DNA of 64,000 nucleotides, from contig CM119371.1 of NCBI GenBank assembly GCA_051294905.1, positions 7,008,001 through 7,072,000 of the forward strand. Reading direction: 5' to 3'. How positions within the stretch are numbered: position 1 is the first letter of the stretch; every line of letters starts with the position of its first letter. Positions 20,504-62,110 of the stretch are shown in pieces. Below the pieces are notes generated by a model. The model was not told where the DNA came from, did no database searches, and was given only the letters and a program-made list of their open reading frames with translations. Made by a program: the position numbers and the translations under genes. The stretch comes from Botryllus schlosseri (taxonomy: Eukaryota).

Positions 20504-22132
20504 CTATCTCTTCACAAATACGGATGTGAAAATTTGAAAACATCGATCAACTTTTGGTTTCACCGTAGTCCATTTGTCTTGCGATGTATCATACTTTTCA
20601 ATAGCATTAGAGGTTTCAAGATCTGATACTGCAAAAATCCACTTGTCAATGTGATACGCATAAAGTCGACCATGACAAGCATTCATTGATGATAATGAAG
20701 TCCACTGAGCTGAAGTAACATCGTAACATTCTACGTTGTCGACTTCGGATGCTCGCCCCTCCCCACCAATCACAAATATCTTCTGATTAACTACAACAAC
20801 TCCACTCCCACATACAGGATATCTTATTGGTTCAAGATCAACCCACTCCGATGAGGATGGAGTGAATCTGCAGAATGATGAAACTTCAACGCCATGATGT
20901 CCTTTACCTCCGATACAATAGATGGAATCATTTAATGACACAAGACTTGCTGAACGAATCGCCAAAGGTTTGTCTTCGAGTTGAATCCATCGATTCACAA
21001 GTGAAGTAAATACTTCCACATCACGAGTTGCTTTATTATAACTTCCTCCGACAACAAATATTGATCCCAACAAAAAAACTGAGCGAGGACAGTAGCCATG
21101 ATCACAAATCATATCTTTCATCCTTTCCCATTTTGAATTTCTGCGCTGAAAATTGAGTCGATAAACTGATTTATTCCGACATAAAATGTAGATATACGAG
21201 TCTAGAGAAATCGCCGAGAAATCTGTTAAATTTCCAAAATTCTCATCATGAAACTTCTCAACTTTCTCAGTTACTGGATTGAAGGATTTGATACAATCTG
21301 CGTCATCATCAAAAAGAATTATCAATTCATCTTCGTGAATTTCTTCGTTTGTTTTCTGTGATGCTTTTGAAACTTTCAAAAGATGTCCAGTGATCAACTT
21401 GTACAGTCCCAAGTTGTTACTGATGATTAGGTTTGATTCCAAAAGACGCTCTAAAAATGCTGGAGAGACTTTATCAAACTTGACAGGTTCCAGAAATTCG
21501 TGCAAGTAATCTTGATTTTTTCCATTTTTCTCAACCCAATTGAACAATAACGTTAGTTTTTCTTCTTCGCATAAGTTTGATTCGTCTAACATCACAAATT
21601 TGAGGATGTTAGTTTTTTCAATATTTCCAAATTCAGGTTGGTTTGATATCTCTATGATATTTTCATGAAAAAAAGCTCTACATCGCTTAGAGACGGCATC
21701 CAGTCCATACATATCGGCGACATTTCTTGAGGAAAAGTAATTCTCTACATTAACTGATTCCTCCAAAAAGTCAGATACTGACTGTTTTATGTCATCCAAC
21801 TGCATCATGATTGCAACATGAAGAAGATCATTCATCTTTTCATCAGGAATCTCAAATTTTCCCGAATATATGAAATCGATGCAGTTTTTCACACACTGAG
21901 AATCGACCTCTTTCAAAACAACTTTTCCTTCACGACTCTCTTTGGTGTCATGTTTCAACATAGCTTTGAAATAAGCACAACCAGCCGACAATACATTTTT
22001 ATGAGTGTAATAGACATCATTTCCTACTTGAATTATGAAATCACAATGATCGTTTTCTAGCTTCATTCGATGTAATTCTTCCATCATCTTCACTGAATGT
22101 TTCTCTACATTTCGACACACAATCTGCACCAT
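20504..22132 (-). CDS. BTB-BACK-Kelch (KLHL-like) protein, copy 2, 542 aa, intronless CDS
   Basis: First ATG at 22132 (the ORF track starts at an upstream TTG). BTB motifs HCDF, HKNVLSA, YFKAML and IDFIYSG, then a BACK region and six kelch-like blades (IFVVGG, IYCIGG, IFVIGG, VECYD...W). Confidence 0.95.
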   Translation of the reverse strand: MVQIVCRNVEKHSVKMMEELHRMKLENDHCDFIIQVGNDVYYTHKNVLSAGCAYFKAMLKHDTKESREGKVVLKEVDSQCVKNCIDFIYSGKFEIPDEKMNDLLHVAIMMQLDDIKQSVSDFLEESVNVENYFSSRNVADMYGLDAVSKRCRAFFHENIIEISNQPEFGNIEKTNILKFVMLDESNLCEEEKLTLLFNWVEKNGKNQDYLHEFLEPVKFDKVSPAFLERLLESNLIISNNLGLYKLITGHLLKVSKASQKTNEEIHEDELIILFDDDADCIKSFNPVTEKVEKFHDENFGNLTDFSAISLDSYIYILCRNKSVYRLNFQRRNSKWERMKDMICDHGYCPRSVFLLGSIFVVGGSYNKATRDVEVFTSLVNRWIQLEDKPLAIRSASLVSLNDSIYCIGGKGHHGVEVSSFCRFTPSSSEWVDLEPIRYPVCGSGVVVVNQKIFVIGGEGRASEVDNVECYDVTSAQWTSLSSMNACHGRLYAYHIDKWIFAVSDLETSNAIEKYDTSQDKWTTVKPKVDRCFQIFTSVFVKR

Positions 22133-22624
22133 GATTGTCAATCAACTATAATTATCCTACAATTATTATAATATACCGGTAGTCAAGCAGAAGCACTGTT
22201 ATTGAATTAAAGATGATTAGTTTTTAGTTACCGTAACTCTAGTAATGCCTGTTGAAAGAATCATAATCCGTATATCAACGTCACGAGTATGAATTGAAGG
22301 AAATTCAACTGCACACAAAAGTGATCACTGAACAGTGCGAAATCAGAGGCATCCTTGCCATAATGCAGTTATGAAAACTTCTTCCATCGATTTGCCTTAC
22401 TTTCCATTCGTTGTATTGACACGAAGGCGAAACCTATGAGTTAATGCGGTCGATTACCACCACCTCGCGTATGATCAGGTTGATTATCCGTAATTTAAAT
22501 TGTATTTTGGAACATCGTAAAATAATTTTATATTATGGTATATTCTAGGGACGGCCACATCTGTTCCATGCTCCATCCGAATATCACAAAGATTTGTTTT
22601 GAAAGAGCAGCAACACGAAAGCCC

Positions 22625-22705
22625 ACGCTGATTTCACTCCGTGTTTGGAAACGAAATCAGCGAAGCATGTGACTTGTCATTGTCATCTGACGGATATTTA
22701 GTTTT
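22625..22705. promoter_or_regulatory. Conserved upstream block of kelch copy 2
   Basis: Same block as 1796-1880, ~500 bp upstream of the ATG. Contains the inverted repeat CGCTGATTTC...GAAATCAGCG. Confidence 0.5.
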
Positions 22706-23051
22706 TGGATTCGCAGTGTAGCCGTTACAATAGCATGCCCAAAATAATATGTATACCACAAAATAACATTTACCATAATTGAAATTTAATATCACTTTTT
22801 GTTTCCCAAAATAATAATAATCGTCTGCAAAATCGTATATCAACATTCAACAATCGCATTCTCTGCTAGTTGCTGAAGATTAGGCCTACCCCTGACGGGT
22901 GTCAGCCGAAAATATTCGGTTTGATTTCAATATGAATATACTATACAACCGTATATTGAAGTTATGTACCTCCAACAAGCTGCACTGATTGAAAAGTAAA
23001 GCAAGAATATAATACACTTGTAAGCTATCCCTACAAATAGGTACAATCTTT

Positions 23052-24552
23052 GAGCGAGATAGTGTAGTGGTGCGTCCGGCTTCTCGAGCGGTAGGTCGTG
23101 GGTTCGATCCCCGGCTGGGTCATACCAAAGACTCGAAAATTGGTATTCGCAGCCATCCTGCTAGGCCTTCAGCATTCACGTATAGCATGGAGGAGAAAAA
23201 AACGGGGGCGCATACTAGATGACCTCACGGACAGAGGTGGTCAAAGTAGTCAAGAAAGCTACTCAAGTAGAAGTAGCGACGAAAAAATCTACTCAAGTAC
23301 AAGTAGAAGTACTTCTTTCATGAGCAACCTAAAACTACTTGAAGTAGAATTGACCGACTTTAAAAGTACTCAAGTAAGTAAGTAGTTGTGAAAACGATCC
23401 TAATTCGTTCACATGGATTATAAAAAGGTGCAAATTGAGCTATGCGACAGGTGACGGGCTTGATTCATATTAATGCGTACCAAGAGGTATCCAATTTTCG
23501 ATAGCATAAGCATTCGTCCACATCATGGGATGAAAATGATAGTATTGATATGGAAATGCGATACTAATCCTCTGTTACTCAAACAGCACGTTTTAGAAAA
23601 TATCATGGTATTGCGCACTGCCCCATATTATAGGGCCTGTAGTTTAGTCGAAGTGCAATACGGAGATGTTGTGTTGGATGCGGTGTAAACCCTTTCTTCG
23701 ATTAGTAAACGTAAATAAAAAATATGGTTGACCGTAAAAATGCTATATTGTGTAGCTTTATTTCTGGAAATTGAAGGCATTACTACACTTGTTATAATTC
23801 AAGATGTACGTTATCCAGACAAAAGAACTGATATTTAGAAATCAAAATATATGGTACTGGGAATTGAAAGTGAAATATAAATCTAAAAACGGGACATGTA
23901 TTTAATGTCTTTAGTCCAGAAAGTTTCGAAGGTTGGTATGCTAAAACAGCTCTAAAACTTAAAAAAAGTCACGGTCCACTTTTCCAGATTAGGACACGCC
24001 ATGGACAGTTAGATCACGGTATGACAAGTAAATGCTAGATTGCGAAACATCAGTTTCAAACGTTATGATAAGCCATATATACTGTGATGAAATATTTGAT
24101 ATGGCGAAGGGCAACAATGCGGTGTGAACGGAACTACGGCAACCCGCTACCTAAATTATATTCACCGATACTTTGGTGAAATCATACTGGATACTCCGCA
24201 TTCACTGCGCGCTAAGCGCGACGAAAATTCTAGGCTTAACTCAACTTTTATGAAAATTAAATATCGATACTCCGTGAAAACAGCCCCGAAATTTCTCAGG
24301 CTTAAACTACTTCCACTTGACAAACTGAAAATAGCGAAAAGTAAGTAAGTAGATCACAAAATACTATGAAGTAGAAGTAGAAGTTGTGAAATTCAGATCT
24401 ACTTGAGTAAGTACCAGAAGTAGAGGAAAACTACTTGAGTACTTCGAAAAAGTAGAAGTACTTCGTTACTGACCACCTCTGCTCACGGACGTATCGCAAC
24501 TCCGTCGTCAAAGCATCTCGATGGTGCAGATTAAAAAGAATATCATCTCTCT
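23052..24552 (+). mobile_element. tRNA-derived SINE split by a hAT insertion
   Basis: A box TAGTGTAGTGG and B box GGTTCGATCCC. The body resumes at 24490 and ends in (CT)n. An uninterrupted copy lies at 56727-56976 (-). Confidence 0.8.
23232..24481. mobile_element. Non-autonomous hAT element (CAGAGGTGGTCA family)
   Basis: TIRs plus perfect 8-bp TSD CTCACGGA at 23224-23231 and 24482-24489. Confidence 0.92.
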
Positions 24553-27500
24553 CTTTGAAAATATATGCATGCACGTTGACGCACGAGATATTCGGTGCAG
24601 TTGTTAAGACTCTTAAACGTGTGGCAGATATATCAAAAAACTATTTTCTACATGAGGTAGTTGGCCTAAACAACAGTTCAACTAGTAATTGAAGTACAAT
24701 TTTAAAATGTCACCACTAGGGTATGTAGTTCAAATAAGCAAAACATACTCAACTGCTGGGAACATTGAGCTGTAGAAACAGCTAGATACAATCTTCAGCA
24801 ATAAATTCGGTTACGAAAACATGCTATTTTACGCACTCCTAATGATAATTTCACTTCTAAAAATGACGCAAGTTTTCCCAAAACTATTTTTTACTTTCCC
24901 AAACCCAAAGTGCGAAAACTAATTTAACGAGATGCCGATAGTCGTCTCATATAAACATAGGCCTAATTGAAATAGTTGGTTTTGAGTATGAGTAAAAATC
25001 AGGAATCTTGATGATGGATAGCGAAAAATTGACACTTTTTTTATTCGGCGCACCCAAATTCATCAAAAACAACAAGAAATAACAAGATAAACAAAGATTT
25101 CATCCGATTTTATTTCATACATAATTATCATTTTTAATCCACGACTCTCATAAAATAAGATCGACATATAAACTTGTAACTTATAACCCAAACTCATATT
25201 GTTGTGAGTATTCCCTTTTGAAGAGTGAATAGCTTGAGCAAATATGTATGCGGCTGAACAAGGAAGAGATAATACACACTGATTTGACTTTTTTCATATT
25301 GAATCATTGAGTGCTGCTGGTGTTTTCATACTGAATTATGGGAAGTGTAAAACTTATACTGCCGACAGTAATCAGAACGTTCCCAACTATTGATATTGGC
25401 CATGTAACCCTTGTGCAATGAATTTTCCAAGTCATCGAAATCATCGATCATATTTATATTGAGTAAGGAAATACAGTAAATATATGATGGGCTGTATCAA
25501 CTAAAATTGCCGGCAGATTTATACACTTTCGTGTTTCTCCACAAAATTTCTGGTTACTATTGCTATGACATTCATCAAATGGTACAAATCGATCACATGC
25601 CAAAATTTGAAAAACTGGACCTACAAAGTTTTGCCGCTTTGAAACAAAAAATACACAATCTTCAAGGCAATTATGATGGATTGAAAATGAAATGAATTGA
25701 AAATTGTAATTATTTTCATTCATGTCTCAGCTGCAGATTTGTACAAACTACTAATCCAGTTGGTTCATGGTAAAGAGTAGTTCATGATGCAAATTTTTGA
25801 AGCGAGTAGTTTAGCGTGAATAGTGAAACTGGTGTTCTGTTGTGTGACGTTCTTGCAGCTATTGCTAGCTCGGAGTCAACGCTACCAACAATGGCGTGGC
25901 CAGGAAATGGGTTTTGAGGGTCGAAAACCGTCCATTTCAAACTCAAAACCCCGTTCTTTTGAAAGGCAGATTATATTTCCAACTCAGTAATTCACATTAT
26001 AAATACTGCAGTTGCTTCAGAACTGAAAATCCAGTAATTTGTACAAATCTGCTCAGGTGAGTGCAATCTATCTCTTCACAAATACAGATCTGTAAATCAC
26101 AAAACATTCATCTACTTTTGGTGTCACTATAGTCCATTTGTCTTGTGTTATATCATACTTTTCAATTTTATTAGCGGTTTTTCCTTCTGATACTGCAAAA
26201 ATCCACTTGTCATGTTGATAAGCAGAAACTCGATCATGACGAGCATTCATAGATAAAAATGAAGTCCATTGAGCTGAAGTAACATCGTAGCATTCAACGT
26301 TGTTGACTTGAAATCCTCCACTCCATCCACCGATCACAAATATCTTGTGATCAACTGCAACAACACCACTGTCAGTCACAGGATATCTCATTGGGTCGAG
26401 ATCAACCCACTCTGATGAGGATGGAGTGAATCTGCAGAATGATGAAACTATGACATCATCTTGTCCTACACCTCCGATACAATAGATGGAATCGTTCAAT
26501 GATACGAGACTTGTATTACAAATCGCTGTAGGTTTGTCTTCTAGTTGAATCCATTGATTCACAAGGGAAGTAAATATTTCCACGTCACTTGTTGCTTTAG
26601 GATAACTTCCGCCCACGACAAATATCGATCCCGATAAAGAAACTGCACGAGGATAGTTTCCATGATCACAAATCATATCTTTCATCTTTTCCCACGTTGA
26701 TTTTTCGCTCTGAAAATTGAGTCGGTAAACTGATTTTGTCACACATAAAACGTAGATATACGAGTCTAGAGAAATCGCAGAGAAAAGTGGTAAATTCTTA
26801 AACTTCTCATCATGGAACTTGTCTACTTTTTCAGTTATTGGATTGAAGGATCGGATACAACTGCGTCACGATCAAAAAGAATTATCAATTCATCTTTACC
26901 AATTTCTTTGTTTCTTTTTTGTGATGCTTTTAAAAGATGTCCATTGATCAACTTGTACAGTCCTAAGTTGTTACTGATAATTAGGTTCGATTCCAAAAGA
27001 CGTTCCAAAAATGCCGGAGAGACTTTATCAAACTTGATTGCTTCGAGACATTCGTCCAAATGTTCCTGATTTCTGCAATTTTTCTCCACCCAATCGAACA
27101 ATAAAATTAGTTTTTCTTCTTCACATAACTTTGATTTTTCCGACATCACAAATTTGAGGAGGTTAGTTTTTTCAATGTTTCCAAATTCTGGTTGGTTTGA
27201 CATTTTTATGATATTTTCAATAAAAAACGCTTCACATCGCGTAGAGAGGGCATCCAGTCCATAAATATCGGCAACATTTCTTGTGGAAAAGTAGTTCTCT
27301 ACATCAACTGATTCCGCCAAAACGTCAGATACTGCCTGCTTCACATCTTCCAGCTGCATCATGACTGCGACATGTAGAAGATCATTCATCTTTTCATCAG
27401 GAATCTGGGCATCCCTAAAAGACGGAGAAGCGGAGGCAGCGGAGACAGCGGAGGCAGCGGAGAACGGACCCTAAAACGCGGAGACAGCGGAGACAGCGGA

Positions 27501-27616
27501 GAGAGCCAAAATGCCGATTCCTAAAACACGGAGATAGCGGAGGAAGCGGAGAGCGGAGCTTTCAGTCATTGACCTTTATAGACACGCGCATACGCAACTC
27601 TAAAAGGTGTAGACGG

Positions 27617-28813
27617 CGGAGAATAACGGAGAAGTCAGCCATGCGAGTTTCAGGCCAATTTGGTGACTGATTGCCCATCGATGAGACGACATAGCGGACG
27701 GTTATATAATATACTGAAAGCGGAGTTCGGGGCGTAGCGAAATATATTTCGAAACAGCAGAGAATAACGGAGAATTCAGCCATGCGAGTTTCAGGCCAAT
27801 TTGGTGACTGATTGCCTATCGATGAGACGACATAGCGGACGGTTATATAATATACTGAAAGCGGAGTTCGGGGCGTAGCGAAATATATTTCGAAACAGCA
27901 GAGAATAACGGAGAATTCGGCCATGCGAGTTTCAGGCCCATTTGGTGACTGATGGCCCATCGATGAGACGACATAGCGGACGGTTAACTGAAAGCGGAGT
28001 TCGGGGCGTAGCGAAATATATTTCGAAACAGCAGAGAATAACGGAGAATTCAGCCATGCGAGTTTCAGGCCAATTAGGTGACTGATTGCCCATCGATGAG
28101 ACGACATAGCGGACGGTTATATAATATACTGAAAGCGGAGTTCGGGGCGTAGCGAAATATCTATCGAAACAGCAGAGAATAACGGAGAATTCAGCCATGC
28201 GAGTTTCAGGCCAATTTGGTGACTGATTGCCCATCGATGAGATGACATTGCGGACGGTTAACTGAAAGCGGAGTTCGGGGCGTAGCGAAATATATTTCGT
28301 AACAGCAGAGAATAACGGAGAATTCAGCCATGCGAGTTTCAGGCCAATTTGGTGACTGATTGCCCATCGATGAGATGACATAGCCGACGGTTATATTGCC
28401 ATAATATATTGAAAGCGGAGTTCGGGGCGTAGCGATATATATTTCGAAACAGCAGAGAATAACGGAGAAGTCAGCCATACGAGTTTCAGGCCAATTTGGT
28501 GACTGATTGCCCATCGATGAGATGACATTGCGGACGGTTATAATATACTGAAAGCGGAGTTCGGGGAGTAGCGAAATATATTTCGAAACAGCAGAGAATA
28601 ACGGAGAATTCAGCCATGCGAGTTTCAGGCCAATTTGGTGACTGATTGCCCATCGATGAGACGACATAGCGGACGGTTATATAATATACTGAAAGCGGAG
28701 TTCGGGGCGTAGCGAAATATCTATCGAAACAGCAGAGAATAACGGAGAATTCAGCCATGCGAGTTTCAGGCCAATTTGGTGACTGATTGCCCATCAATGA
28801 GATGACATTGCGG
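27617..28813. repeat. Left arm array, about nine 133-147-bp units
   Basis: Repeated unit GCAGAGAATAACGGAGAATTCAGCCATGCGAGTTTCAGGCCAATTTGGTGACTGATTGCCCATCGATGAG... Confidence 0.95.
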
Positions 28814-29971
28814 CCGCGTTTCGTATGACAATTTAACTGATGATAGTTGTGGAATATTATACTGAACTACTTTCTACTTTACAAAAACCTAATTGCAAAT
28901 GTAATTAGTTCATCCAGAATACTGTTCAGGTTGAAGTGATTGCGAAACATTACCACTTCAATAAGTACCGGAAATAGCCCAAATCTACTTGATTACCTCG
29001 AAAAAGTAGAAATATTCAACATATATAATATCTGAACAACTTGATGTGATAAAGCAAAAATAATAGGGATGGTGTGAACCTCTGAAAGGTTCGGGTTCGT
29101 GTGAACGCGAACCATTTTGAAAGGTTCTGTGTGAACACGAACGTGAACCTCGTGACGTCATATTGCTAATTCCAACCGTATCTTTCCTATATTAATGTAC
29201 ACGATACCTAGCGAAGACTCGGGCCACATAATGTCACATAATTGCTGAAGTACATATTGGCGTTTTAAACGTCGCTAAATGTATTAACCGCGGTTATCAA
29301 AGGATATAATAATCTCATAAAATCAATACATTCCGTCGCTTTGCCAACAATTTCGACGAGGACTTACACTAAGGGTGGAGATCATAGACGTAACTTAAGT
29401 TCCGGTTGCCAAGTAACACATGCTTGAGTGATGAGCATTACTCAATTGAGGATCATAAAGTATCCTCAGCCATAAAATGAGTTTTTAACGAGACTCAAAA
29501 CGTCCGAAACTTAAGGTACGTGTAGTGCTAACTTAAGTACGCGACATGTTACTTCGAGAGCTCCGGCGTTACAGTTGGTCGGTCATCCGAGGCCCTATTT
29601 CTCGTCACGCAGCAACGGCGTCAGCATAGTTATACCACAATGACCTACAGTAATGCATAACAATGACCAAGGAGTTGCAGCGGACGACTGAAAACATAAG
29701 CAAACGGCTTCTGAAGTAATGTGCTGGGGATTACTCTGCATCGCAATAGTCATACCGCAATGGTCTAGATTAATGCATAGCAATGGCTTGAAGCTACTGC
29801 GGATGACTGGAAATATAAACAACCAGGTGCTGAAGTGATGTGCCATGGTCAGGCTCGAAATCAATGACTATTGTACGCTATTTAACGTACTGTCATTGTA
29901 ATTTATAACGGGCTAAATTGCTATCAACTATCAAATACAGAATTAGAAGCGATAATCTAACAATTGTAATA

Positions 29972-30644
29972 ATGGCTGATGTTCCAGCAAAGAGGGAGCC
30001 CAATTTCTCTATTCAAGAAAAAAAGTTGTTGTTGGATTTAGTGGCAGAAAATCCCGTTATTGAAAATAAAAAAACAGACAAATATTCCACCAACGCGAAA
30101 GATAAAGAGTGGGAGAGTCTCGCGGAGAAGTTTAATTCCAGCGGCCTTGGGACAATTAGGAGCCAAAAATGTCTAAGAAAACGTTGGATGAACATGAAAG
30201 ATAGGGCGAAAAGTGACGAGGCAAGGCTCAAAAGCGAAAAGCGGAAAACGGGGGGTGGGCCGAAGACGTTTATTCCAGACCCTTTGACGGAAGCAGTATG
30301 CTGTGAGTGTAAAAAAATTGAGCAAATAGTTGCCTACAATCATACGCACTGATTTGTAACAAATGTATTTTTCAGCTGTTGTTCCTGGTCAAATCTACCC
30401 TATCGATCATTGCCTTGATCACGATACAATCGATTGTGAAGAGGAATCTTACGTTATCATGCATTCGGAATCGCCGGTGACGAGTCATTCTTCGTCGACT
30501 CCCGTCCATTTCGGACGGAAATCAAAGAGAAGTGGCAGCTTTCATTTCGAAGAAAGCGTGGAACAACCCCCCAAAAAGTCCAAATTTGAAGTTATCCGTG
30601 ACGAATATTTGGCCGAAAAGATAAATGCTATGAAGAAACAATGA
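29972..30644 (+). CDS. Myb/SANT-like DNA-binding domain protein (Harbinger-ORF2/MSANTD-like), 199 aa, 2 exons (29972-30302, 30376-30644)
   Basis: MADVPAKREPNFSIQEKKLLLDLV...IENKKTD...KDKEWESLAEKFNS...RSQKCLRKRWMNMK...RKTGGGP. A 73-bp GTGAGT...TTTTTCAG intron joins the two ORFs in frame. AATAAA near 30949. Confidence 0.8.
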
Positions 30645-31289
30645 TTCAAAAAAGCCCTACTTGATCACCTCTTGTCGTTACACTAACACTGTTGCCCTAC
30701 CTCGCCCAGACATTGCTTCATTGATCATTTGCTACCATTGTTTAATTTTTTTTCTATTTTCCTTTTCTAACTAAACATTTTTTACAGCCAGACTGTTCTG
30801 AGTCAAGTTTACCTGTTTGATGCTGGTGTGATCAGACTAGATGACCTTCATGGTCTTATCGATCATTCCTATCTAATACCGAATACTGTGCACGCATATT
30901 TTCTGTACCACCATCACTGCCGTTTGTTATGTATTTTGGTTCGATGAAAATAAAGACTCTCTCTCTCTCTCTCACCAGGGAATATAAGCTTACGCCTTAA
31001 CGGTCTTAGCCAGACTGGATAATGTGTTCGGAGTCTGAGTATTGCTACATTTATATTGAGCAGAGTGTAAAACGGGTTTCTATACTCGCTACCGATACCA
31101 TAAACAACAAGTCAGCCAGCACCTTAATCGCACGGATTTGGTTTTAATGATACAGTAAAGATATGAAGTCAGGATTGACCCCGTACGCCGCTGAGCAGTT
31201 TCAGGTTTTTAGAAAAATTTTTGAGTGAATTTGAAGTTCTAAGATCGAAAAAATATGTGCCGGTTATATATTGTCGAATACTTCGAAAT

Positions 31290-32680
31290 ACACCAAATTG
31301 GCCAGGAACTCGCATCGTTGACTTTTCCGTTTCTCACCGCTGTTTCGAAACATCTTCCCCTACGCCCCGATCTCCGCTTTCAATATATTATGTAACCGTC
31401 CGATACGTCGTCTCATTGATCGGTTCCATCGTTCGGTTTATTAGCAATTTTCAGTATATTATAACTGTCCGCAATGTCATCTCATCGATGGGCAATCAGT
31501 CACCAAATTGGCCTGAAACTCGCATGGCTGAATTCTCCGTTATTCTCTGCTGTTTCGAAATATATATCGCTACGCCCCGAACTCCGTTTTCAATATATTA
31601 TGGCAATATAACCGTCGGCTATGTCATCTCATCGATGGGCAATCAGTCACCAAATTGGCCTGAAACTCGCATGGCTGAATTCTCCGTTATTCTCTGCTGT
31701 TTCGAAATATATTTCGCTACGCCCCGAACTCCGCTTTCAGTATATTATAACCTTCCGCAATGTCATCTCATTGATGGGCAATCAGTCACCAAATTGGCCT
31801 GAAACTCGCATGGCTGAATTCTCCGTTATTCTCTGCTGTTTCGATAGATATTTCGCTACGCCCCGAACTCCGCTTTCAATATATTATGGCAATATAACCG
31901 TCGGCTATGTCATCTCATCGATGGGCAATCAGTCACCAAATTGGCCTGAAACTCGCATGGCTGAATTCTCCGTTATTCTCTGCTGTTACGAAATATATTT
32001 CGCTACGCCCCGAACTCCGCTTTCAGTATATTATATAACCGTCCGCTATGTCGTCTCATCGATGGGCAATCAGTCACCAAATTGGCCTGAAACTCGCATG
32101 GCTGAATTCTCCGTTATTCTCTGCTGTTTCGAAATACATTTCGCTACGCCCCGAACTCCGCTTTCAGTATATTATTACCGTCCGCTATGTCGTCTCATCG
32201 ATGGGCAATCAGTCACCAAATTGGCCTGAAACTCGCATGGCTGAATTCTCCGTTATTCTCTGCTGTTTCGAAATATATTTCGCTACGCCCCGAACTCCGC
32301 TTTCAGTTAACCGTCCGCTATGTCGTCTCATCGATGGGCCATCAGTCACCAAATGGGCCTGAAACTCGCATGGCCGAATTCTCCGTTATTCTCTGCTGTT
32401 TCGAAATATATTTCGCTACGCCCCGAACTCCGCTTTCAGTATATTATATAACCGTCCGCTATGTCGTCTCATCGATAGGCAATCAGTCACCAAATTGGCC
32501 TGAAACTCGCATGGCTGAATTCTCCGTTATTCTCTGCTGTTTCGAAATATATTTCGCTACGCCCCGAACTCCGCTTTCAGTATATTATATAACCGTCCGC
32601 TATGTCGTCTCATCGATGGGCAATCAGTCACCAAATTGGCCTGAAACTCGCATGGCTGACTTCTCCGTTATTCTCCGCCG
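31290..32680. repeat. Right arm array, nine units plus one degenerate inner unit (inverted relative to the left arm)
   Basis: Reverse complement of the left-arm units. Confidence 0.95.
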
Positions 32681-33515
32681 TCTACACCTTTTAGAGTTGC
32701 GTATGCGCGTGTCTATAAAGGTCAATGACTGAAAGCTCCGCTCTCCGCTTCCTCCGCTATCTCCGTGTTTTAGGAATCGGCATTTTGGCTCTCTCCGCTG
32801 TCTCCGCTGTCTCCGCGTTTTAGGGTCCGTTCTCCGCTGCCTCCGCTGTCTCCGCTGCCTCCGCTTCTCCGTCTTTTAGGGATGCCCCAGGAATCTCCAA
32901 TTTTCCCGAATATATGAAATCGATGCAGTTTTTCACACACCTTGAATCGACCTCTTTCAAAACAACTTTTCCTTCACGACACTCTTTTGTGTCGTGTTTC
33001 AACATAGCTTTAAAATAATCACAACCAGCCGACAATACATTTCTGTGAGTGTAATAAACATCATCTCCCACTTGAATTGTGAAATCACAATGATCGTTCT
33101 CTCGCTTCATTCGATGTAATTCTTCCATCATCTTCACTGAATGTTTCTCTACATTTTGACACACAATCTGCACCATGATTGTCAATCAACTATAATTATC
33201 CTACGATTATTATAATATAGTCAAGCACTGTTATTGAATTAAAGATGATTAGAAAGTAATGCCTGTTGAAAGAATCATAATACGTACCGGTACATCAACG
33301 TCATGAGTATGAATTGAAGGAACTTCACTTCAACTACACATAGGGTGATCACTGAACAGTGCTAAATCAGAGGCGTCCCTCTCATAATGTTATGAAAACT
33401 TCTTTATATTTTATACTGTGGTATATTCCAGGGGCGACCGCACCTATTTCATGCTCCAACCTAATACCACAAAGATTGGTTTTAACAGAGCAGCATCACG
33501 AATGATCACGGCATC

Positions 33516-51280: not shown

Positions 51281-52909
51281 CTATCTCTTCACAAATATGG
51301 ATCTGTAAATTTGAAAACATTGGTCTGCTTTTGGTTTCACTATAGTCCATTTGCCTTGCGATGTATCATACTTTTCAATTGGATTAGGGGTTTTGAATTC
51401 TGCTACTGCAAAAATCCAATTGCCAATGTGATATGCAGAAACTCGACCATGACAATCATTCATAGAAGATAATGAAGTCCATTGAGATGACGTAACATCG
51501 TAACATTCTACGTTTTCGAGCTGGCGCCCTCCACTCACCCCACCGATCACAAATATCTTTTGATCAGCTGCAACAGCGCCACTTCCCCAAACAGAATATT
51601 TTATTGGTTCGAGATCAACCCACTCTGATGAGGATGGAGTGTATCTGCAGAATGAAGAAACTATGACACCATCTCGTCCTTCACCTCCGATACAATAGAT
51701 TGAATCATTCAATGATACGAGACTTGCATCAGATATTGCGGTAGGTTTATCTTCTAGTTGAATCCATTGATTCACGAGGGAAGTAAATATTTCCACATCA
51801 CTCGTTGCTTTAGGACCGCTTCCTCCAACGACAAATATCGATCCCGACAAAGAAATTGCACATGGATACTGTCCATGGTCACAAAGCATATCTTTCATCC
51901 TTTCCCATTTTGATTTTTGCCTCTGAAAATTGAGTCGGTAAACTGATTTCCCCTGGCATAAAATGTAGATATACGAGTCCAGAGAAATCGCCGAGAATTG
52001 TTTCAAATTCCTAATTTTCTCATCATGAAACTTCTCTACTTTCTCAGTTACTGGATGGAAGGATCGGATCAAATCTGCGTTATCATCAAAAAGAATTAAC
52101 AATTCATCTTTGCCAATTTCGTCGTGTATTTTGTGCGTTGCTTTTAAAGTTTTCAAAAGATGTCCATTGATCAGCTTGTACAGTTCTAAGTCATTGCTGA
52201 TAATTTGGTTTGACTCCATAAGATGTTCTAAAAATGACGGTGAGACTTCATCAAACTTGATTGCTTCGAGACACATTTGCAAATGTTCCTGATTTTTTTG
52301 ATTTTTTTCAACCCAATTAAACAATAATCCTAATTTTTCTTCTCCACATAACTTCGATTTTTCTGACTTCACATAATTGAGGATGTTAGTTTTTTCAGTA
52401 TTTCCAAATTCAGGTTGGTTTGATAGTTCCATGATATTTTCATGAAAAAATGCTCCACATCGGGTAGAGACGGCATCCAGTCCATACATATCGGCGACAT
52501 TTCTTGTGGAAAAGTAATTCTCTACAGTAAGTGATTCCTCCAAAACGTCAGATACTGCCTGTTTCACGTCTTCCAACTGCATCATGATTGCGACATGAAG
52601 AAGATCGTTCATCTTTTCATCAGGAATCTCAAATTTGCCCGAATATATGAAATCGATGCAGTTTTTCACACATTGAGAATCGACCTCTTTCAAAACGACT
52701 TTTCCTTCGCGACTCTCTTTAGTGTCGTGCTTTAACATAGCTTTGAAATAAGCACAACCAGCCGACAATACATTTTTGTGCGTGTAATAGACATCATCTC
52801 CTACTTGAATTATGAAATCACAATGATCGTTTTCTTGCTTCATTCGATGTAATTCTTCCATCATCTTCACTGAATGTTTCTCTACATGTGGACACACAAT
52901 CTGCACCAT
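51281..52909 (-). CDS. BTB-BACK-Kelch (KLHL-like) protein, copy 4, 542 aa, intronless CDS
   Basis: Intact ORF from ATG 52909 with the same domain motifs as copy 2. Confidence 0.95.
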   Translation of the reverse strand: MVQIVCPHVEKHSVKMMEELHRMKQENDHCDFIIQVGDDVYYTHKNVLSAGCAYFKAMLKHDTKESREGKVVLKEVDSQCVKNCIDFIYSGKFEIPDEKMNDLLHVAIMMQLEDVKQAVSDVLEESLTVENYFSTRNVADMYGLDAVSTRCGAFFHENIMELSNQPEFGNTEKTNILNYVKSEKSKLCGEEKLGLLFNWVEKNQKNQEHLQMCLEAIKFDEVSPSFLEHLMESNQIISNDLELYKLINGHLLKTLKATHKIHDEIGKDELLILFDDNADLIRSFHPVTEKVEKFHDEKIRNLKQFSAISLDSYIYILCQGKSVYRLNFQRQKSKWERMKDMLCDHGQYPCAISLSGSIFVVGGSGPKATSDVEIFTSLVNQWIQLEDKPTAISDASLVSLNDSIYCIGGEGRDGVIVSSFCRYTPSSSEWVDLEPIKYSVWGSGAVAADQKIFVIGGVSGGRQLENVECYDVTSSQWTSLSSMNDCHGRVSAYHIGNWIFAVAEFKTPNPIEKYDTSQGKWTIVKPKADQCFQIYRSIFVKR

Positions 52910-53857
52910 GATTGTCAATCATCCACAATAGGCTATATAGAATAATCCTATGATTATTATGATATAGTTAAGCACTGTTATTGAAGTAAAGATGATTAGT
53001 AGGGCGATTTTGTAACATGTCAAAATTGAAGCGTTAGGTTAAAAATTGTCAAAATTGTTCACAAAGTCAAAATTTTTTTGACCTCTGCATTTCGTTTGTA
53101 TCGTAGATTTTGCACTGTCGGTGAACTTATCATCTGGTATTTTACAGCTTGTAGCCTATTTTATAGGCCTACCGTTGTAGACGGCGCATTGTCTGCTCAT
53201 TGTGAATCTTAAACCGTTACAAGCACACTGCACACACACTCTTACTACTATTAAACATTGGTCACTAAAGAAATTTAGGAAGTAGTCAAATAGCATAATT
53301 TTGTCTTGTCTACAACCATTTATTCAAGATTTCATGGACTAGGACTCGCAGTCGTTCATAATCATTTCTTCAACCCAAGCCGCTGAGCTACACTACAAAT
53401 ATTTTTAATTTTGTCCAGTGGGAAGCAGCAAAATCAATTTTACAATTTAACTAAACCAGTCAATGTATAATTCCAAAAATTGAATCAATTTGTGACTGCA
53501 TCGGGAAGATGCATATTGCGATTTTCTTCCTCTATGCAACTGAATTGCAATTTACAAATGATGCCCAATTTTATCAATATTGTTACTAATAACAGGGATT
53601 GATGGTACATAAAAATCCTATTTTAGTTATTATTAGTAATTTCAAGATACTTTTGAAAGCAATAGTTTTCATAATAAAGAAGTTGTCACTCAAACTCTCA
53701 TAGATTTTGCGTTTTACTGAGCCTCCATCGTTCTATCATTAATAAATTGCCCGCAAACAAAGTGATCGGAGCTCGCAAACTAGTAGTATAGTAACCTAAT
53801 GGCACATTATATATCCCTTTTTTATAGAATGCTCATGGTGGTCGGTACCCGTCTTAT

Positions 53858-56109: not shown

Positions 56110-56398
56110 TAGGGATGGTGTCAGCCAATGGAAAGGTTCCGGTTCATGTAAAGACAAACATTTTTGAAAGGTTCTGTGTGTGCTAATTCCAACCCTACAT
56201 TTCAGTGAAGTGATAGCCTATAATAATGTACATGATACCTGGCTACAACTCGGACCACATATTGCCACAATGCTGAAGTACATATTGACGTTTTACACGT
56301 CGCCAAATGTATCAACCGGGGCAATCAAATGATATAATAATGCCGTCGCTTTGCCAACAATTTCGGCGAGGACTGCAAGGAAATATAAGCTTACGCCA
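56110..56398. mobile_element. Fragment of a TAGGGATG-terminated hAT-like MITE
   Basis: Colinear with 29064-29375 joined to 30977-30996 inside the foldback element. Confidence 0.6.
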
Positions 56399-56726
56399 GA
56401 GGTTGGCACCCCCCCCCCCCCCCGGCGCCATTTGTGCGCCTGCTATATTATTTACATCAGACAACGACATCAATTTCATTGATTGGTTGATTAAGCATCA
56501 TTCGTTGACTACTTGCATGTAGTTTATTTCGCTCTTAATGTTGTTACCAAATATGGTAAAATGGCAACCCTATTGGAAAAGCAATACTTTTACCCGTACT
56601 GGAGTGAACTTTGCATTGCTACTTTTACTAGGAGTATCTTTTTCGACCACTTCTGATCATGCATACGGGCTCATGCAATCGCAGATAGTTATTCCTATTT
56701 TTAGTAACTTTTCCGGGACAGCTAGG

Positions 56727-56976
56727 AGATAGAGAGAGATATGATATTCTTTTTCGCCTATACCATCGATATGCTTTGACGACGGTGATGCGATACGGCC
56801 GTGAGGTCATCTAGTCTGCGCCCCTATTTTTTTCCTTCTCCATGCTATCCGTGATTGCTGAGCGCCTAGCAGCGGAAACCAATTTTCGAGTCCTTGGTAT
56901 GACCCGGCCGGGGGTCAAACCCACGACTTACCGACCGAGAAGCCGGACACATAACCATTACACTATCTCGCTCGGT
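56727..56976 (-). mobile_element. tRNA-derived SINE
   Basis: Reverse complement of the SINE at 23052-24552, with A/B-box-like motifs and a (CT)n tail. Confidence 0.8.
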
Positions 56977-57206
56977 GGACTTTTCCTCCATCCAAATTTA
57001 CTGGTATTGGTGTGCAATATTTATTTCATGATTTCTTTGTCAGCTCGGAATGGGTAAATAGATTAAAATTGTAATTATAGCAACAGCTTTGTCCCAATTA
57101 GATTAGATCACCGAATTCGCGCAAACTTGTTTATTGAATCAACTTCCATTAATAGGCCTATAAAATCATGGTTCATTCTTATGAGTATGACTTGATTAGG
57201 CTATAG

Positions 57207-58723
57207 CAGTGGTTCTTAACCTAGCCCCCAGCGCCCCCTAGGGGGCGCTGGTGATTTTGAAGGGGGGCGGAAACGCTCAGGGGGCGATATGGGGGGCGCT
57301 GGGCTCAGGGGGGCGCTGGAGAAAAATGGCTTCGCAGTAGATGATGTGGTGATAGGACATATCCTTAATGAGTATTCAGAGCAAATTAACACCGAAAACT
57401 TTGTTACATATAGCCTTCAAAATACATATAGGTTTAATTGTCAATGGGCGCCTAAATGACTGACACCGAATGTTCCTGTCTTGGCAATATGAACCCCAGA
57501 AGACGAATTCCATCTGGCAGGGAAAAATTATATGTCAGTGAAGAAATACCAATCTGAAATCGTGTGCGTCTTTTAGTTTAGTACGATTGGGCGATAGGGA
57601 TATTCCGGTTGGGCGATATCCCCGTTGAGCGATTCTATATTTTTTGATATTGCAGACAGGGGGTCACGAAATAACATCATGCAACGAAGTCATACCAACG
57701 GGTTCGCCCGCCCGAATATGTTTAATTATTAGTAACGGGCCCTGCAGTTTCCAAGAAACCTCACAATGTTCGCTTTAAGTTTTGATGAGTCTGCGGCCTG
57801 CGCACACTTGACAACAGTGCGTAACGACTAAAAAAGGTAATAACTTCGGATTTGTTGTGCGCAACATAGATTTTCTGTGCGCAGAGACCGTGTCAGCACT
57901 GCGCACGTGCGCAGCTTAGAGGGAACATTGCACCTCACTCAGCTCTACCGGTAAATGTGTTTACGTGAGCAGAGAGAGGATAAAAATTAATCTCAATTTA
58001 CATGCAATTCCCGCTGATATTGACCAATTCAATCATTAATTAGTGAAATTTTTCGCGCTTCGCGCGACTAGGCGAGAATAGCTGCCTCAGTAAATGGACA
58101 CCCAATGCAGATACCTAATAGGCTATCAGCAAATAGCGGACAGCCTAATGGGGGTATCGGAGTGAAGTCCCCCGGAAGTTTGGTTCATCACCCGATGGGG
58201 TCCCAGGACCAACGTTATTTTTTTTTGGGGGGGGGGGGGCTGACGAAGTTCTGTTACGGCCCTGATAACCAATAATTGTACCTGCGGGCACGCCCGAATA
58301 TGTTTAATTAATAATTACGTGCCCTTTATTTTCCTATACAACAACTCACTCAGTGCTACTGGTAAATCTGATTACGTGAGCTGAGAGGATAAAAAGTTTG
58401 TAGCGACTTATATATGTAATAACCATCTATTCATTCATGCATTATAGAAAATTTTGGTACCTAGGGCGACCAGGCCACACAAACTTTGCTGACCATCGAA
58501 ATCACGATATGGGGTTCGTGGGGGCGAAGCCCTCAGAAGTTCGGTTTATCACGCTATGGGTGCGCAAGGCAATCGTTTATAGGGGGGTTGACGAAGTGCT
58601 GTTACGGCCCTCCCTCTTACTCATTGTCTTTATTACATTCCTTACAATATGAAGTTGGGGGGGCGCTGGAGCACGATAATTTTTGAAAGGGGGCGCTGGA
58701 GGAAAAAAGGTTAAGAACCGCTG
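57207..58723. mobile_element. Non-autonomous hAT element (GGGGGCGC subrepeats)
   Basis: CAGTGGTTCTTAACC / GGTTAAGAACCGCTG termini. TSD GGCTATAG at 57199-57206 and 58724-58731. Confidence 0.92.
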
Positions 58724-60484
58724 GGCTATAGCATGCTGCATGAGAATAGCAAATGTCTGTAGAGCAAGCTTGGCTCGTTTCACACTTCCTACAGTTTTCC
58801 TGTTAGCATTTGCATTAGCATTTTACAAATTATACAAGAATTAGATTATTACTGGTAACAGCATTTAGGAAGATTTGTTTGGTTATCAGACTCTACCTTG
58901 TACCCAATGTTACATCAACGATGTAATTACCCATCCAACAGTTCAATCATGGTGATCACTAACGAGTACAGAGGCGTGCTTGAATGAATGCTTTTAGACG
59001 GGATTTTCAGAACATGCAGTTGGGCGGGGTAGTCATCAGCTATACTTCAATTGTTCTATTAGCAACCATTCACGGTTCAATCAGTTCCTACAGACTGGGA
59101 TAATAGCTTCGGCGTTGGAGCAAATTGAAAACTGATACCATTACGTTAACTTCACTAATCAATTCTTAGAAACTTCTGTCTGTTGGGAATAGAATGTCGC
59201 CGTCCATCCTAATTGTGACTTGAAAATACGCAGCCGGATGAAACTCACCTTGAATGAGAATTGGTAAATTCCCTGAAAGTTGCAACTTGCTTGACTCTGA
59301 TCGAAAGAAAATCCTTGCCTGAAAAATACATTGGGTTAGAAACGATTCAAATTTGAACTTTACAGTAACCCAATGTGTTCAGACTTGTTGTTATAGATAT
59401 AAATATGATGGTTACTGGTGTTTGAGTTCAGTTTATTGTGAATAATTTTATCATCTCAAAACACCCCACCATAGCATTGATGGCAGATATTCGAATTCGA
59501 AATCATTGATTTTACAAAAAAGATGAATTCAGAATTACTCACTTTTATCTCCTTGACAGAATTGTCAGACATTGATGCATGTCAGATTCCAACTGATTGA
59601 CATCGGTTGAGATTGTCATGCAAACTTCTTTTATTACCAAAGCCATTTCACATCCGACGAACAGACCGTTAAATGATATGTTATCCTATACGATGACAAT
59701 ATGATTGCAACCCACTGTAACAAATTGAAGACAGGTTATGAAAAGTAAAATCAATGAATCGATATACACCAAAGGTTGCTCAAGCCTGGCCATCGTACCG
59801 GCAGATGTGATGTATAGTTGCCGATAGCCCCTCATATAAACATAATCGAATTGTTAGTTTTGAGTAAAAATCAGGCATCTTGATCATGGATAGCGAAAAA
59901 ATGACACTCTTTTATTTGACACACCCAAATACATCAAAAACAATAAAAATAACAAGATAAACAAAAATTTCATCCGATTTTATTTCGTACGTAATCATTG
60001 TTTATCCACGATTCTCATAAAATAAGATAGGCATATAAACTTGTAATTTGTCACCTAAGCTCAATTTACAACACATACTGTTGTGAGCATGCCTTTTGAA
60101 GAGCGAATAACTTGAGCAAAGATTGTCTGCGACTCAAAAAAGAAATAGATCACCCACACTCATTTGATGTGGGTTATTTCATACAGAATCATGGTATGTG
60201 TACAAGTCATACCGCCTGGCGCCTACAGTAATCAGTATGTTCCTAACTACTGATATCGGCGATATAACCATTGTGCAATGCATAGTCAAAGTTATCAAAA
60301 TCATCAACCATATCTATACTGAATAAGGAACTAAATACACAATGGACAGTATCAACTAGGATTTCTGGCAGGATTATACACTGTACTTCAAGTAATGAAG
60401 TATATTTCCACAAAATTACTGGACACTATATACCCAGCGTCACCAACACGTGGCCCTGTACAAGTCTGCTCAGGTGAGTGCAAT

Positions 60485-62110
60485 CTATCTCTTCACAAAT
60501 ATGGATCTGTAAAATCGAAAACGTTGATCCACTTTTGGTGTCACTTTAGTCCATTTGTTTTGCGATATATCATACTTTTCAATTGAATTAGAGGTTTCTC
60601 CATCTGTTACTGCAAAAATCCACTTGTCAATGTGATACGCAGAAACTCGACCATGAAAAGTATTCATAGAAGATAATGAAGTCCACTGAGCTGAAGTAGC
60701 ATCGTAACATTCTACTTTTTCGACTTTCTTTCCTCCACTCGCCCCACCGATTACGAATATCTTTTGATCAACTGCAACGACACCACTCTGCCACACAGTA
60801 TATCTCACTGGTTCGAGATCAACCCACTCTGATGAGGATGGAGTGAATCTGCAGAATGATGAAACTTCTACACCATCTTGTCCTTCACCTCCAATACAAT
60901 AGATGGAATCATTCAATGATACGAGACTTGTTAAACGAATCGCTGTAGGTTTGTCGTTTAGTTGAATCCATTGATTAACAAGGGAAGTAAACATTTCCAC
61001 ATCACTTGTTGCTTCATTGCTTCCCCCAACAACAAATATCGATCCCGACAAAGTAACCGAGCGAGGATGCCATCCATGACAACAAATCATATCTTTCATC
61101 TTTTCCCATTTTGAATTTTTTCTCTGAATATTGATTCGATGAACTGATTTATTCTTACATAAAATGTAGATATACGAGTCTAAAGAAATCGCTGAAAAAT
61201 TTTTTAAACTCTGAAACGTCTCGTCATGAAACTTCTCTACTTTCTCAGTTACTGGATTGAAGGATTTGATACAATCTGCGTTATCATCGAAAAGAATTAT
61301 CAAATCATCTTTGCAGATTTCTTCGTTTCTTTCTTGTGACGTTTTTGAAGCTTTTAAAAGATGTCCATTGATCAATTTGTACAGTTCTAAGTCGTTACTG
61401 ATGATTAGGTTTGATTCCAAAAGACGTTCTAAAAATGATGGAGGGACTTTATCAAACTTAATTACTTCAAGACATCCATGCAAATGTTCCTGATTTTTTT
61501 GATTTTTCTCGGCCCAATTGAACAATAGCGTAAGTTTTTTTTCTTCGCATAACTTTGATTTTTCCGACTTCACAAAATTGAGGATGTCATTTTTCTCAAT
61601 ATTTCCGAATTCAGATTGGTTTGATATTTCCATGATATTTTCATGAACAAATGCTCCCAATCGCGTAGAGACGGCATACAGTCCATACATATCGGCGACA
61701 GCTCTTGTGGAAAAGTAATTACCTACAGTAAGTGATTCCTCCAAAACGTCAGATACTGCCTGTTTCACATCTTCCAGCTGCATCATGATTGCGACATGAA
61801 GAAGATCATTCATCTTTTCATCAGGAATCTCAAATTTTCCCGAATATATGAAATCGATGCAGTTTTTCACACATTGAGAATCGACCTCTTTCAAAACGAC
61901 TTTTCCTTCACGACTCTCTTTGGTGTCGTGCTTTAACATGGCTTTGAAATAAGCACAACCAGCCGACAGTACATTTTTGTGAGTGTAATAGACATCATCT
62001 CCTACTTGAATTATGAAATCACAGTGATCGTTTTCTTGCTTCATTCGATGTAATTCTTCCATCATCTTCACTGAATGTTTCTCTACATTTGGACACACAA
62101 TCTGCACCAT
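60485..62110 (-). CDS. BTB-BACK-Kelch (KLHL-like) protein, copy 5, 541 aa, intronless CDS
   Basis: Intact ORF from ATG 62110, with a one-codon deletion in a kelch loop (GGS-NEATSD). Confidence 0.95.
   Translation of the reverse strand: MVQIVCPNVEKHSVKMMEELHRMKQENDHCDFIIQVGDDVYYTHKNVLSAGCAYFKAMLKHDTKESREGKVVLKEVDSQCVKNCIDFIYSGKFEIPDEKMNDLLHVAIMMQLEDVKQAVSDVLEESLTVGNYFSTRAVADMYGLYAVSTRLGAFVHENIMEISNQSEFGNIEKNDILNFVKSEKSKLCEEKKLTLLFNWAEKNQKNQEHLHGCLEVIKFDKVPPSFLERLLESNLIISNDLELYKLINGHLLKASKTSQERNEEICKDDLIILFDDNADCIKSFNPVTEKVEKFHDETFQSLKNFSAISLDSYIYILCKNKSVHRINIQRKNSKWEKMKDMICCHGWHPRSVTLSGSIFVVGGSNEATSDVEMFTSLVNQWIQLNDKPTAIRLTSLVSLNDSIYCIGGEGQDGVEVSSFCRFTPSSSEWVDLEPVRYTVWQSGVVAVDQKIFVIGGASGGKKVEKVECYDATSAQWTSLSSMNTFHGRVSAYHIDKWIFAVTDGETSNSIEKYDISQNKWTKVTPKVDQRFRFYRSIFVKR

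Follow-up and report, generated by a model that had tools for sequence, protein, structure and literature searches.

A tandem array of single-exon BTB-BACK-Kelch genes in Botryllus schlosseri with a constrained BTB domain and positive selection on the propeller pocket face

Substrate adaptors of Cullin-RING ubiquitin ligases that diversify between paralogs are already known from nematodes and plants. The MATH-BTB and F-box families of nematodes are lineage-specific and positively selected, and positive selection on their recognition domains is established; Thomas 2006 is said to have been the first to describe them as diversifying adaptors. The BTB-Kelch proteins of vertebrates are regarded as housekeeping adaptors that are conserved and keep fixed substrates. 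Here we describe a family of BTB-BACK-Kelch genes in the tunicate Botryllus schlosseri, analyzed from a stretch of 64,000 nucleotides (C1, contig CM119371.1, positions 7008001-7072000, in an assembly of 495.5 Mb; "the window" below). The genes belong to a large tandem array in which the BTB domain is held under purifying selection and residues on one Kelch propeller face, corresponding to the substrate pocket of KEAP1, are under positive selection. In the literature that we searched, which left out subscription journals and genome-paper supplements, we found no report of a BTB-Kelch family so expanded and diversified, in tunicates or elsewhere. The principle of a diversifying adaptor is known from the nematode families; its BTB-Kelch version is apparently unreported.

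Like the nematode families, the array combines a constant domain on the presumed cullin side with a fast-evolving substrate domain, and it has arisen by large lineage-specific tandem expansion with birth-and-death turnover. The cullin would be the one that MATH-BTB proteins use, Cullin-3 (Cul3). The array differs in that its recognition domain is a six-bladed Kelch propeller and not a MATH or FTH/FBA domain, in that its genes are single-exon, and in that the position phi of the Cul3-binding motif is threonine. Its host, unlike those of the nematode and plant families, is a tunicate, a chordate relative. Teleost finTRIM and primate TRIM5-type proteins offer a second comparison, being germline-encoded E3 ligase repertoires with positively selected loops in the recognition domain. 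They resemble the array as chordate germline families with a constant catalytic or scaffold part; however, they are RING-B-box-B30.2 proteins and themselves E3 ligases, whereas an array protein would serve a separate Cullin-RING core as its receptor.

The BTB-BACK-Kelch architecture is also used in host-virus conflict by the poxvirus proteins, among them vaccinia A55, C2 and F3, of which A55 binds Cul3 through a phi-x-(D/E) motif according to the part of PMC6484134 on which we draw. Those genes are viral and subvert the host Cul3, and the only viral-contig relative of the array family is 21% identical, so that there is no sign of recent exchange. As for cellular genes, passages of PMC1257465 put the number of BTB-BACK-Kelch genes at 25-50 per vertebrate genome and list lineage-specific BTB expansions of the BTB-ZF and BTB-BACK-Kelch classes in vertebrates and of MATH-BTB in C. 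elegans. The vertebrate KLHL genes are dispersed, conserved single genes with fixed substrates; here we see an array of at least 52 genes with a pocket under positive selection.

A tandem family on the KLHL scaffold

Five genes of the family lie in the window, all intronless and on the minus strand: three intact genes, one truncated at the edge of the window and one pseudogene. The intact genes are copy 2 (20504..22132; ATG at 22132, stop at 20504-20506), copy 4 (51281..52909) and copy 5 (60485..62110; ATG at 62110). They sit in the long minus-strand frames 20504-22141, 51281-52918 and 60485-62158 of a stop-to-stop list of open reading frames (ORFs), and their translations, of 542, 542 and 541 amino acids (aa), have a common Met-Val-Gln start. 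Pfam recognizes BTB, BACK and Kelch domains in all three (PF00651, E-values 5.9e-22, 3.9e-21 and 1.7e-20; PF07707, 8.2e-14 to 2e-12; Kelch_1, about 1e-26). In copy 2 the BTB domain spans residues 22-126 (5.9e-22), BACK about 135-231 (8.2e-14) and the six-blade Kelch propeller 269-541 (Kelch_1, 9.5e-26). Copy 1 enters the window with its first 126 codons, the BTB part (1..378, minus strand; 88.9% identical to copy 2 residues 1-126 by tblastn); its remainder lies to the left, and the whole gene (C1:7006741-7008378) is intact, with an open frame of 546 aa.

Copy 3 is a pseudogene, disrupted by a frameshift near 26862 (about codon 282) and by a transposon at about codon 105. Its 3' part (26071..27406, minus strand, about codons 106-545) is recovered by tblastn in two frames, matching residues 283-545 and 97-281, and its 5' part (32889..33176, minus strand, about codons 1-105, BTB) is 86.7% identical to residues 1-105. 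With copy 2 as query the pieces run 26071-26859, 26862-27407 in the other frame, and 32871-33185. The C-terminal 265 aa can still be aligned with the other window copies. The original prediction, which had taken copies 2 to 5 for a series of tandem BTB-Kelch genes, was right that there are four related copies and that they belong to such a family, but copy 3 is no working gene.

The array itself extends far beyond the roughly four copies on which that prediction was based. When the genome was searched in six frames with copy 2, 535 first-look candidates came up, and 80 of them were scored; the copy counts are lower bounds. All 80 scored candidates have a strong full-length or near-full-length match. 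Fifty-two of them lie within 962 kb of C1 (6.59-7.55 Mb) at a median spacing of 17 kb, 49 on the minus strand and 3 on the plus strand; 44 of these 52 listed copies are full-length without stops, and 8 are truncated or carry stops. The pseudogene copy 3 falls outside the 80. Genome-wide, a degenerate pattern back-translated from a conserved nonapeptide of the BTB domain matches 149 places and its reversed control none. At least 57 of the listed matches are inside the array, one of them in the 5' part of copy 3 (C1:7041067, window 33067). Counted by this sequence pattern, the family has at least 149 members in the genome. Further clusters, at 60-72% identity, occur at C1 13.8-15.7 and 35.9-36.2 Mb, on C14, on C16 and elsewhere. 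As a separate observation, the three plus-strand members are consecutive (C1:7172151-7219882) and form an inverted three-gene block inside the array.

Close relatives outside this genome are scarce. Among 1.84 billion representatives only three full-length ones exceed 40% identity, all unnamed (53, 45-46 and 41-43%). Identity to the best named relative, a Styela clava 'kelch-like protein 12', is 29%, and it falls to 20-23% for the other named KLHL, IPP and kelch proteins, so that no one-to-one ortholog among the named KLHL proteins was found. With at least 52 copies in 962 kb, at least 149 genome-wide and so few relatives elsewhere, the family is a lineage-specific tandem expansion.

Its membership in the BTB-BACK-Kelch (KLHL/KBTBD) superfamily is established. 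An AlphaFold2 model of copy 2, built on an alignment of 38 paralogs and homologs, has a mean predicted local distance difference test score of 87.9 and comprises the BTB domain, a helical BACK region (132-257), a short disordered linker (258-266) and a six-bladed propeller of 24 strands, closed between its N and C termini by the C-terminal strand. The best full-length structural matches in Foldseek are KBTBD2, KLHL22 and KBTBD4, which have been solved in Cul3 complexes, and the Kelch domain matches those of KLHL12, KEAP1 and KLHL17 with TM-scores of 0.81-0.86 (normalized to the target). Domain order and fold are thus those of KEAP1, KLHL12 and the other KLHL/KBTBD proteins, although the array proteins are only 20-29% identical to the named KLHLs.

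The arrangement of the copies bears on how they arose. Strong homology between window copies stops 25-250 bp past the ORF in self-blastn, and weaker collinear patches (68-80%) recur in the intergenic DNA of the window, interleaved with repeats. The flanks of 45 paralogs are about 90% identical to the consensus over about 100 nt on the upstream and about 150 nt on the downstream side, and the youngest copy pairs have flanks in common. The uniform orientation, the collinear intergenic homology and the common flanks point to tandem or segmental duplication followed by transposon turnover; the same three features rule out an origin by retroposition. A viral origin was also considered and rejected, as only one of 100 viral stretches matched by the pattern codes for a relative, which is 21% identical. 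The disruption of copy 3, the 8 broken copies among the 52 listed and the recent segmental duplicates together document the birth-and-death turnover that had been proposed from the window alone.

Constraint on the BTB domain and selection on the pocket face

For the evolutionary analyses 47 of the 52 array members were taken, the remaining five being truncated or carrying stops. Before codon alignment L035 (premature stop, 350 aa) and L047 (no start motif) were left out, as was L045, identical to L044, for the models. Nei-Gojobori estimates on the codon alignment, over all pairs, give the BTB domain a synonymous divergence (dS) of 0.27, a non-synonymous divergence (dN) of 0.043 and a dN/dS of 0.16. 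The ratio rises to 0.37 in BACK and 0.39 in the linker, and in the Kelch domain it is 0.54 (dS 0.28, dN 0.149). A class-based test over 946 pairs puts the BTB ratio at 0.14 (0.09-0.20), with BTB dS up to 0.30. Among 45 paralogs the mean pairwise aa identity drops from 0.909 in BTB to 0.749 in Kelch, and the column entropy is 0.17-0.31 bits in BTB but 0.5-1.0 bits in the rest of the protein, peaking sharply at those loop positions that had been named as variable. The near-identity of the BTB domains could in principle have come from gene conversion limited to them, a check which the original prediction had asked for. BTB dS (0.27-0.30) equals Kelch dS (0.28), and BTB-limited conversion is therefore excluded as its cause; the identity reflects purifying selection.

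Recombination among the copies is nonetheless real. The maximum-likelihood (ML) tree has the shape of a star, its tips being long and its internal nodes weak, and the pairwise homoplasy index (PHI) test gives z = -8.1, with 0 of 300 permutations as low. Copy 4 (L017) and L020 (C1:7551495-7553126), 492 kb apart, differ at 17 nt, all within codons 8-113, and show no difference between codon 114 and the stop; the 3' flanks are 98.6% and the 5' flanks 85% identical. This mosaic places a breakpoint, from recombination or conversion, at the border of BTB and BACK.

Positive selection was assessed with our own FUBAR-like analysis, a codon model of the Goldman-Yang type (F3x4) with nucleotide ML branch lengths rescaled under M0 and a 9 x 17 grid of synonymous and non-synonymous rates weighted by expectation-maximization. 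On a single tree, allowing omega above 1 improves the fit by a twofold log-likelihood difference (2dlnL) of 963 with the synonymous rate fixed and 278 with it free, and 48 sites reach P>=0.95, 38 of them in Kelch. Because recombination inflates such tests, we used six segment-specific trees. The signal survives, with 2dlnL of 568 (synonymous rate alpha fixed) and 133 (alpha free) and 41 sites at P>=0.95. Under both segment-tree variants 22 sites pass with an expected non-synonymous rate of at least 2. Hypermutation of loop codons was considered as a source of the pattern and is unsupported, the synonymous rates at these strict sites ranging from about 0.7 to 3.0.

The selected sites are not scattered over the propeller. 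We assigned residues to structural classes from the strands of the model alone, so that "pocket face" here rests on loop class and on alignment with KEAP1. By the segment trees, 16 selected sites fall in the B-C loops (47 residues) and 13 in the D-A loops (62 residues), against 4 in the strands (125 residues), 1 in the C-D loops (29 residues) and none in the A-B loops (10 residues). The B-C and D-A loops, 109 of 273 Kelch residues, thus hold 29 of the 34 selected Kelch sites (Fisher p=1.5e-8), as opposed to 1 of the 39 residues in loops of the opposite face (p = 8e-4 for the two faces). Every one of the six B-C loops has at least one selected site, as do five of the six D-A loops; the sixth D-A loop has as its representatives residues 533 and 536, where the last strand begins. 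The loop strings originally read from copies 2, 3, 4 and 5, and both strands described as fixed, are all present in the alignment of the four window copies.

A tree-free comparison of dN/dS between these classes is immune to recombination, and the classes were not chosen by variability. The B-C loops stand at 1.35 (bootstrap 1.01-1.81), with the proportion of non-synonymous differences above that of synonymous ones in 765 of 946 pairs. The strands are at 0.29 and the A-B plus C-D loops at 0.34. At the 18 strongest Kelch sites the 45 paralogs carry 43 distinct signatures. Residues that line the predicted pocket change faster than neutral between paralogs. Alignment is less certain around an indel in the B-C loop of blade IV (sites 458-464).

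Comparison with KEAP1 connects these positions with known substrate contacts. In the parts of PMC4668279 that we cite, the KEAP1 substrate pocket is built from D-A and B-C loops, with Nrf2 Glu79 bound by Arg415, Arg483 and Ser508, and Glu82 by Ser363 and Asn382. We aligned copy 2 with the full-length KEAP1 chain by HMMER (chain index equal to residue number + 7, checked at Arg483, Ser508, Ser363 and Asn382). Three of the contacts align with selected sites, Arg483 with E463, Ser508 with G488 and, in a blade-shifted register, Ser363 with C441. Asn382 aligns with R460, which is significant in the single-tree run only, and Arg415 may pair with S394, by ungapped extension of the alignment. KEAP1 Tyr334, Arg380, Phe478, Tyr525 and Tyr572 (first residue after 'GG') are, we assume, contact residues as well.

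A second cluster allows a partial replication. At C1 14.74-15.15 Mb we sampled 20 members, 12 intact and 8 broken. The intact ones fall into three subfamilies 57-66% identical to one another and 73-95% identical within. There too, variability is highest at the 18 strict Kelch sites of the first array (entropy 1.91 against 0.74 bits, Mann-Whitney p = 7e-9). The pattern of variability is thus replicated, and a class average above 1 is not. In this cluster (L063-L082, 14.74-15.18 Mb) the subfamilies are interleaved and several gene pairs are about 3 kb apart; the broken share (8 of 20 sampled) is higher than in the first array (8 of 52 listed).

The original prediction had named three findings that would speak against it. 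We looked at each and found a B-C loop ratio above 1, variable residues clustered on one face, and BTB similarity that conversion does not explain.

Candidate function and rival explanations

We favor, with moderate confidence, the reading that this large, lineage-restricted tandem family of single-exon genes encodes receptors of Cul3-RING ubiquitin ligases (CRL3) that track fast-changing ligands. To our knowledge the BTB/3-box/BACK module dimerizes and docks on Cul3 in every characterized relative, and in the array proteins this constant N-terminal module would do the same. The genes encode working proteins, in which the six-bladed propeller supplies a constant framework and positive selection drives the pocket-lining residues of one face apart between paralogs. 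Segmental tandem duplication makes new copies, recombination or gene conversion reshuffles them, sometimes exactly at the BTB/BACK border, and frameshifts, stops and transposon insertions remove them. Each paralog would most likely be a CRL3 substrate receptor with its own specificity, and the whole array a germline-encoded repertoire for recognizing and degrading fast-changing proteins. Viral or parasite proteins, transposon proteins and other selfish-element products would be candidate ligands. We infer Cul3 binding, ubiquitylation and the nature of the ligands; capture of substrates by the D-A/B-C face is putative, by analogy with KEAP1. An immune-type role, as first proposed for the window, would be one among several conflict scenarios that fit equally well. 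More doubtful, though possible, is a fuller picture in which about 150 Cul3 receptors form a cytosolic counterpart of a variable-receptor system, with private Kelch pockets directed against non-self or selfish proteins, paralogs that heterodimerize through their near-identical BTB domains, and modules reshuffled at the BTB/BACK border.

This kind of selection is the mark left by an evolutionary arms race on a repertoire that recognizes proteins. A KLHL scaffold has become a repertoire of over 50 genes, about 150 genome-wide, with selection at KEAP1 substrate-contact positions, and the array amounts to a library, made by nature, of pockets that vary on an unchanging propeller framework. It offers a concrete candidate for intracellular recognition of non-self or selfish elements in a lineage close to vertebrates, and a testable case of recognition diversity generated by recombination and duplication without somatic rearrangement. 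If the fuller picture above is true, an invertebrate chordate relative without antibody-type immunity has a germline-encoded intracellular repertoire of about 150 genes for recognition and degradation.

Several results weigh against this reading of the array as diversifying CRL3 receptors. The recombination among paralogs inflates single-tree site tests, and our codon model is home-made, with empirical-Bayes posteriors uncorrected for multiple testing, so that the site lists are approximate. A count of distinct residues per site supports positive selection but is far less striking than the likelihoods: in a neutral simulation of 5000 sites on the same tree 11 residues is the 99.9th percentile and 13 the maximum, and 5 of 538 sites exceed 11 (up to 15) where 0.54 would be expected. 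As a class the D-A loops average a dN/dS of 0.61, and B-C and D-A loops jointly 0.87 (0.67-1.13). The excess must therefore be carried by a subset of positions, namely those that come first behind the 'GG' of strand B and the pair immediately preceding strand A. In the older second cluster, where dS is 0.5-0.7, the pocket-loop classes reach 0.58-0.59, with strands at 0.23. Finally, the Cul3 motif of the array proteins reads T-K-E, with phi Thr in 46 of 48 sequences and Ser in the other 2 (the Glu is present in 48 of 48).

The alternative that survives best keeps the diversifying array and changes its opponent. It would serve intragenomic or reproductive conflict and not pathogen defense, as toxin-antidote-like or hybrid-incompatibility adaptors, in germline or gamete conflict, or in self/non-self recognition between individuals. 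The selection signature is silent on the identity of the opponent, and the cytosolic architecture of the model, in which no signal peptide or membrane segment is apparent, fits an intracellular conflict of this kind. In Caenorhabditis, according to the portion of PMC12951971 on which we rely, fast-evolving Cullin-adaptor families (F-box, BTB and MATH) are overrepresented in divergent regions, and hybrid incompatibility has been traced to one newborn F-box gene. By analogy with that work, the immune and incompatibility readings would both be live. We regard the conflict alternative as unlikely, although none of our results tells specifically against it.

Improbable in our view is a second alternative, in which the proteins work without Cul3, BTB-BACK acting as dimer or scaffold and the propeller sequestering its ligand, anchoring it to the cytoskeleton or signaling without ubiquitylation. 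The parts of PMC6484134 cited here describe the phi-x-(D/E) motif of the BTB alpha3-beta4 loop as a key Cul3 contact and report that a charged residue at phi abolishes binding in SPOP. The Thr or Ser at this normally hydrophobic position is shared with more distant relatives (P0004-P0007), while Met or Leu stands there in the ordinary KLHL homologs aligned with them, and this speaks for the alternative. Thr is uncharged and may or may not act as the SPOP mutation does. On the other side, the acid is invariant in all 48 sequences, the BTB ratio of 0.14-0.16 indicates constraint, and the closest solved full-length structures are all CRL3 adaptors. Helices after BTB that form the 3-box characterize CRL3 adaptors (PMC4668279, in the sections cited), and helices 132-142 and 145-162 are predicted at that place; a BACK domain is present as well (the Pfam match starts at 137-138). 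A single Cul3 gene is encoded by the host, on C14 at about 12.394-12.408 Mb, and a peptide from one of its exons is 91-94% identical to animal Cul3. On the analogy of their relatives, docking of the array proteins on Cul3 is likely, with one atypical contact residue.

Apart from this gene, we noted on C16 a single-exon 783-aa gene with a cullin-homology region (L052, 85-2436). By its sequence features it may be an APC2-type subunit and not a cullin.

Neutral birth-and-death, with relaxed surface loops in redundant duplicates and most copies on their way to becoming pseudogenes, is very unlikely. Pseudogenes are present (copy 3, 8 of 52 in the array, 8 of 20 in the sampled second cluster), and the D-A average of 0.61 would suit such relaxation. 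Against it, 44 of 52 copies keep full open frames at a mean dS of 0.28 and the BTB ratio is 0.14 in 946 pairs. The B-C loops have a lower bound of 1.01 around 1.35, and the gain in fit from allowing omega above 1 stays large when segment trees are used (568 and 133). Loops of the opposite face, equally exposed, stand at 0.34.

That the array is an artifact of assembly duplication, a set of retrocopies, or carried by viruses or transposons is scarcely credible, in spite of the intronless genes, the identical pair L044/L045 and a few pairs 98-99% identical, since 45 paralogs have 43 distinct pocket signatures and a typical dS of 0.28, the near-identical pairs lie at non-constant offsets (99-733 kb) that do not fit a duplicated haplotype block, the orientation (49 of 52), intergenic patches and common flanks indicate tandem or segmental duplication, and the only relative in the viral collection is 21% identical.

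Other features of the window

The insertion in copy 3 is a young DNA transposon of 5482 bp (27407..32888), delimited by self-blastn and by its junctions relative to the uninterrupted copy 2. Its terminal inverted repeats, about 1.4 kb long and made of tandem repeats of about 140 bp, are 97.3% identical (27407-28813 against 32887-31469), and a clean 8-bp target-site duplication flanks it (27399-27406 and 32889-32896). Inside, an ORF on the plus strand (29909..30352) encodes a Myb/SANT-like DNA-binding domain (Pfam Myb_DNA-bind_5, E 2e-16); no transposase ORF was recognized in the element.

Upstream of copy 2 lies a block common to the paralogs (22133..22330, minus strand), identified from a MAFFT profile of 45 upstream flanks. 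About 100 nt of it are about 90% identical to the consensus, with weaker similarity to about 190 nt; by self-blastn, homology stops 80-250 bp past the ORFs. The block is probably a 5' untranslated region (UTR) or core promoter. A tract rich in pyrimidines within it, whose CAG end is about 70 nt before the ATG, may be an acceptor for splicing of a 5' UTR intron or for trans-splicing.

RNA reads were examined over window positions 19000-27400. In bulk RNA (run X24) depth over the copy 2 ORF is 0.3-6.4, and 2696 of 2709 reads lie only partly on the stretch. Depth is higher in the conserved BTB part, where paralogs cross-map, and a single-cell run (X22) is similar. The highest depth of the interval (14-40 bulk, 88 single-cell) is found 0.4-0.9 kb downstream of copy 2, at 19562-20123. 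Many reads there continue into unlike sequence, and the segment is probably an expressed repeat rather than the 3' UTR of copy 2.

Of the remaining 23 window ORFs of at least 100 aa, 20 have no Pfam family. A 100-aa ORF at 6774-7076 (minus strand) matches the ZSWIM3 N-terminal domain (PF21599, E 2.9e-11) and may be a fragment of a transposase-derived gene. A repeat of very high copy number occupies 22653-24619, where summed contig word depth in a DNA run (X1) is 10^4-10^5 against 10^2-10^3 nearby, and has an inverted relative at 8207-9494. A recurrent internal deletion joins 23227 to 24490 within this repeat. The joint is present in both RNA and DNA runs, and deleted repeat copies therefore exist as DNA.

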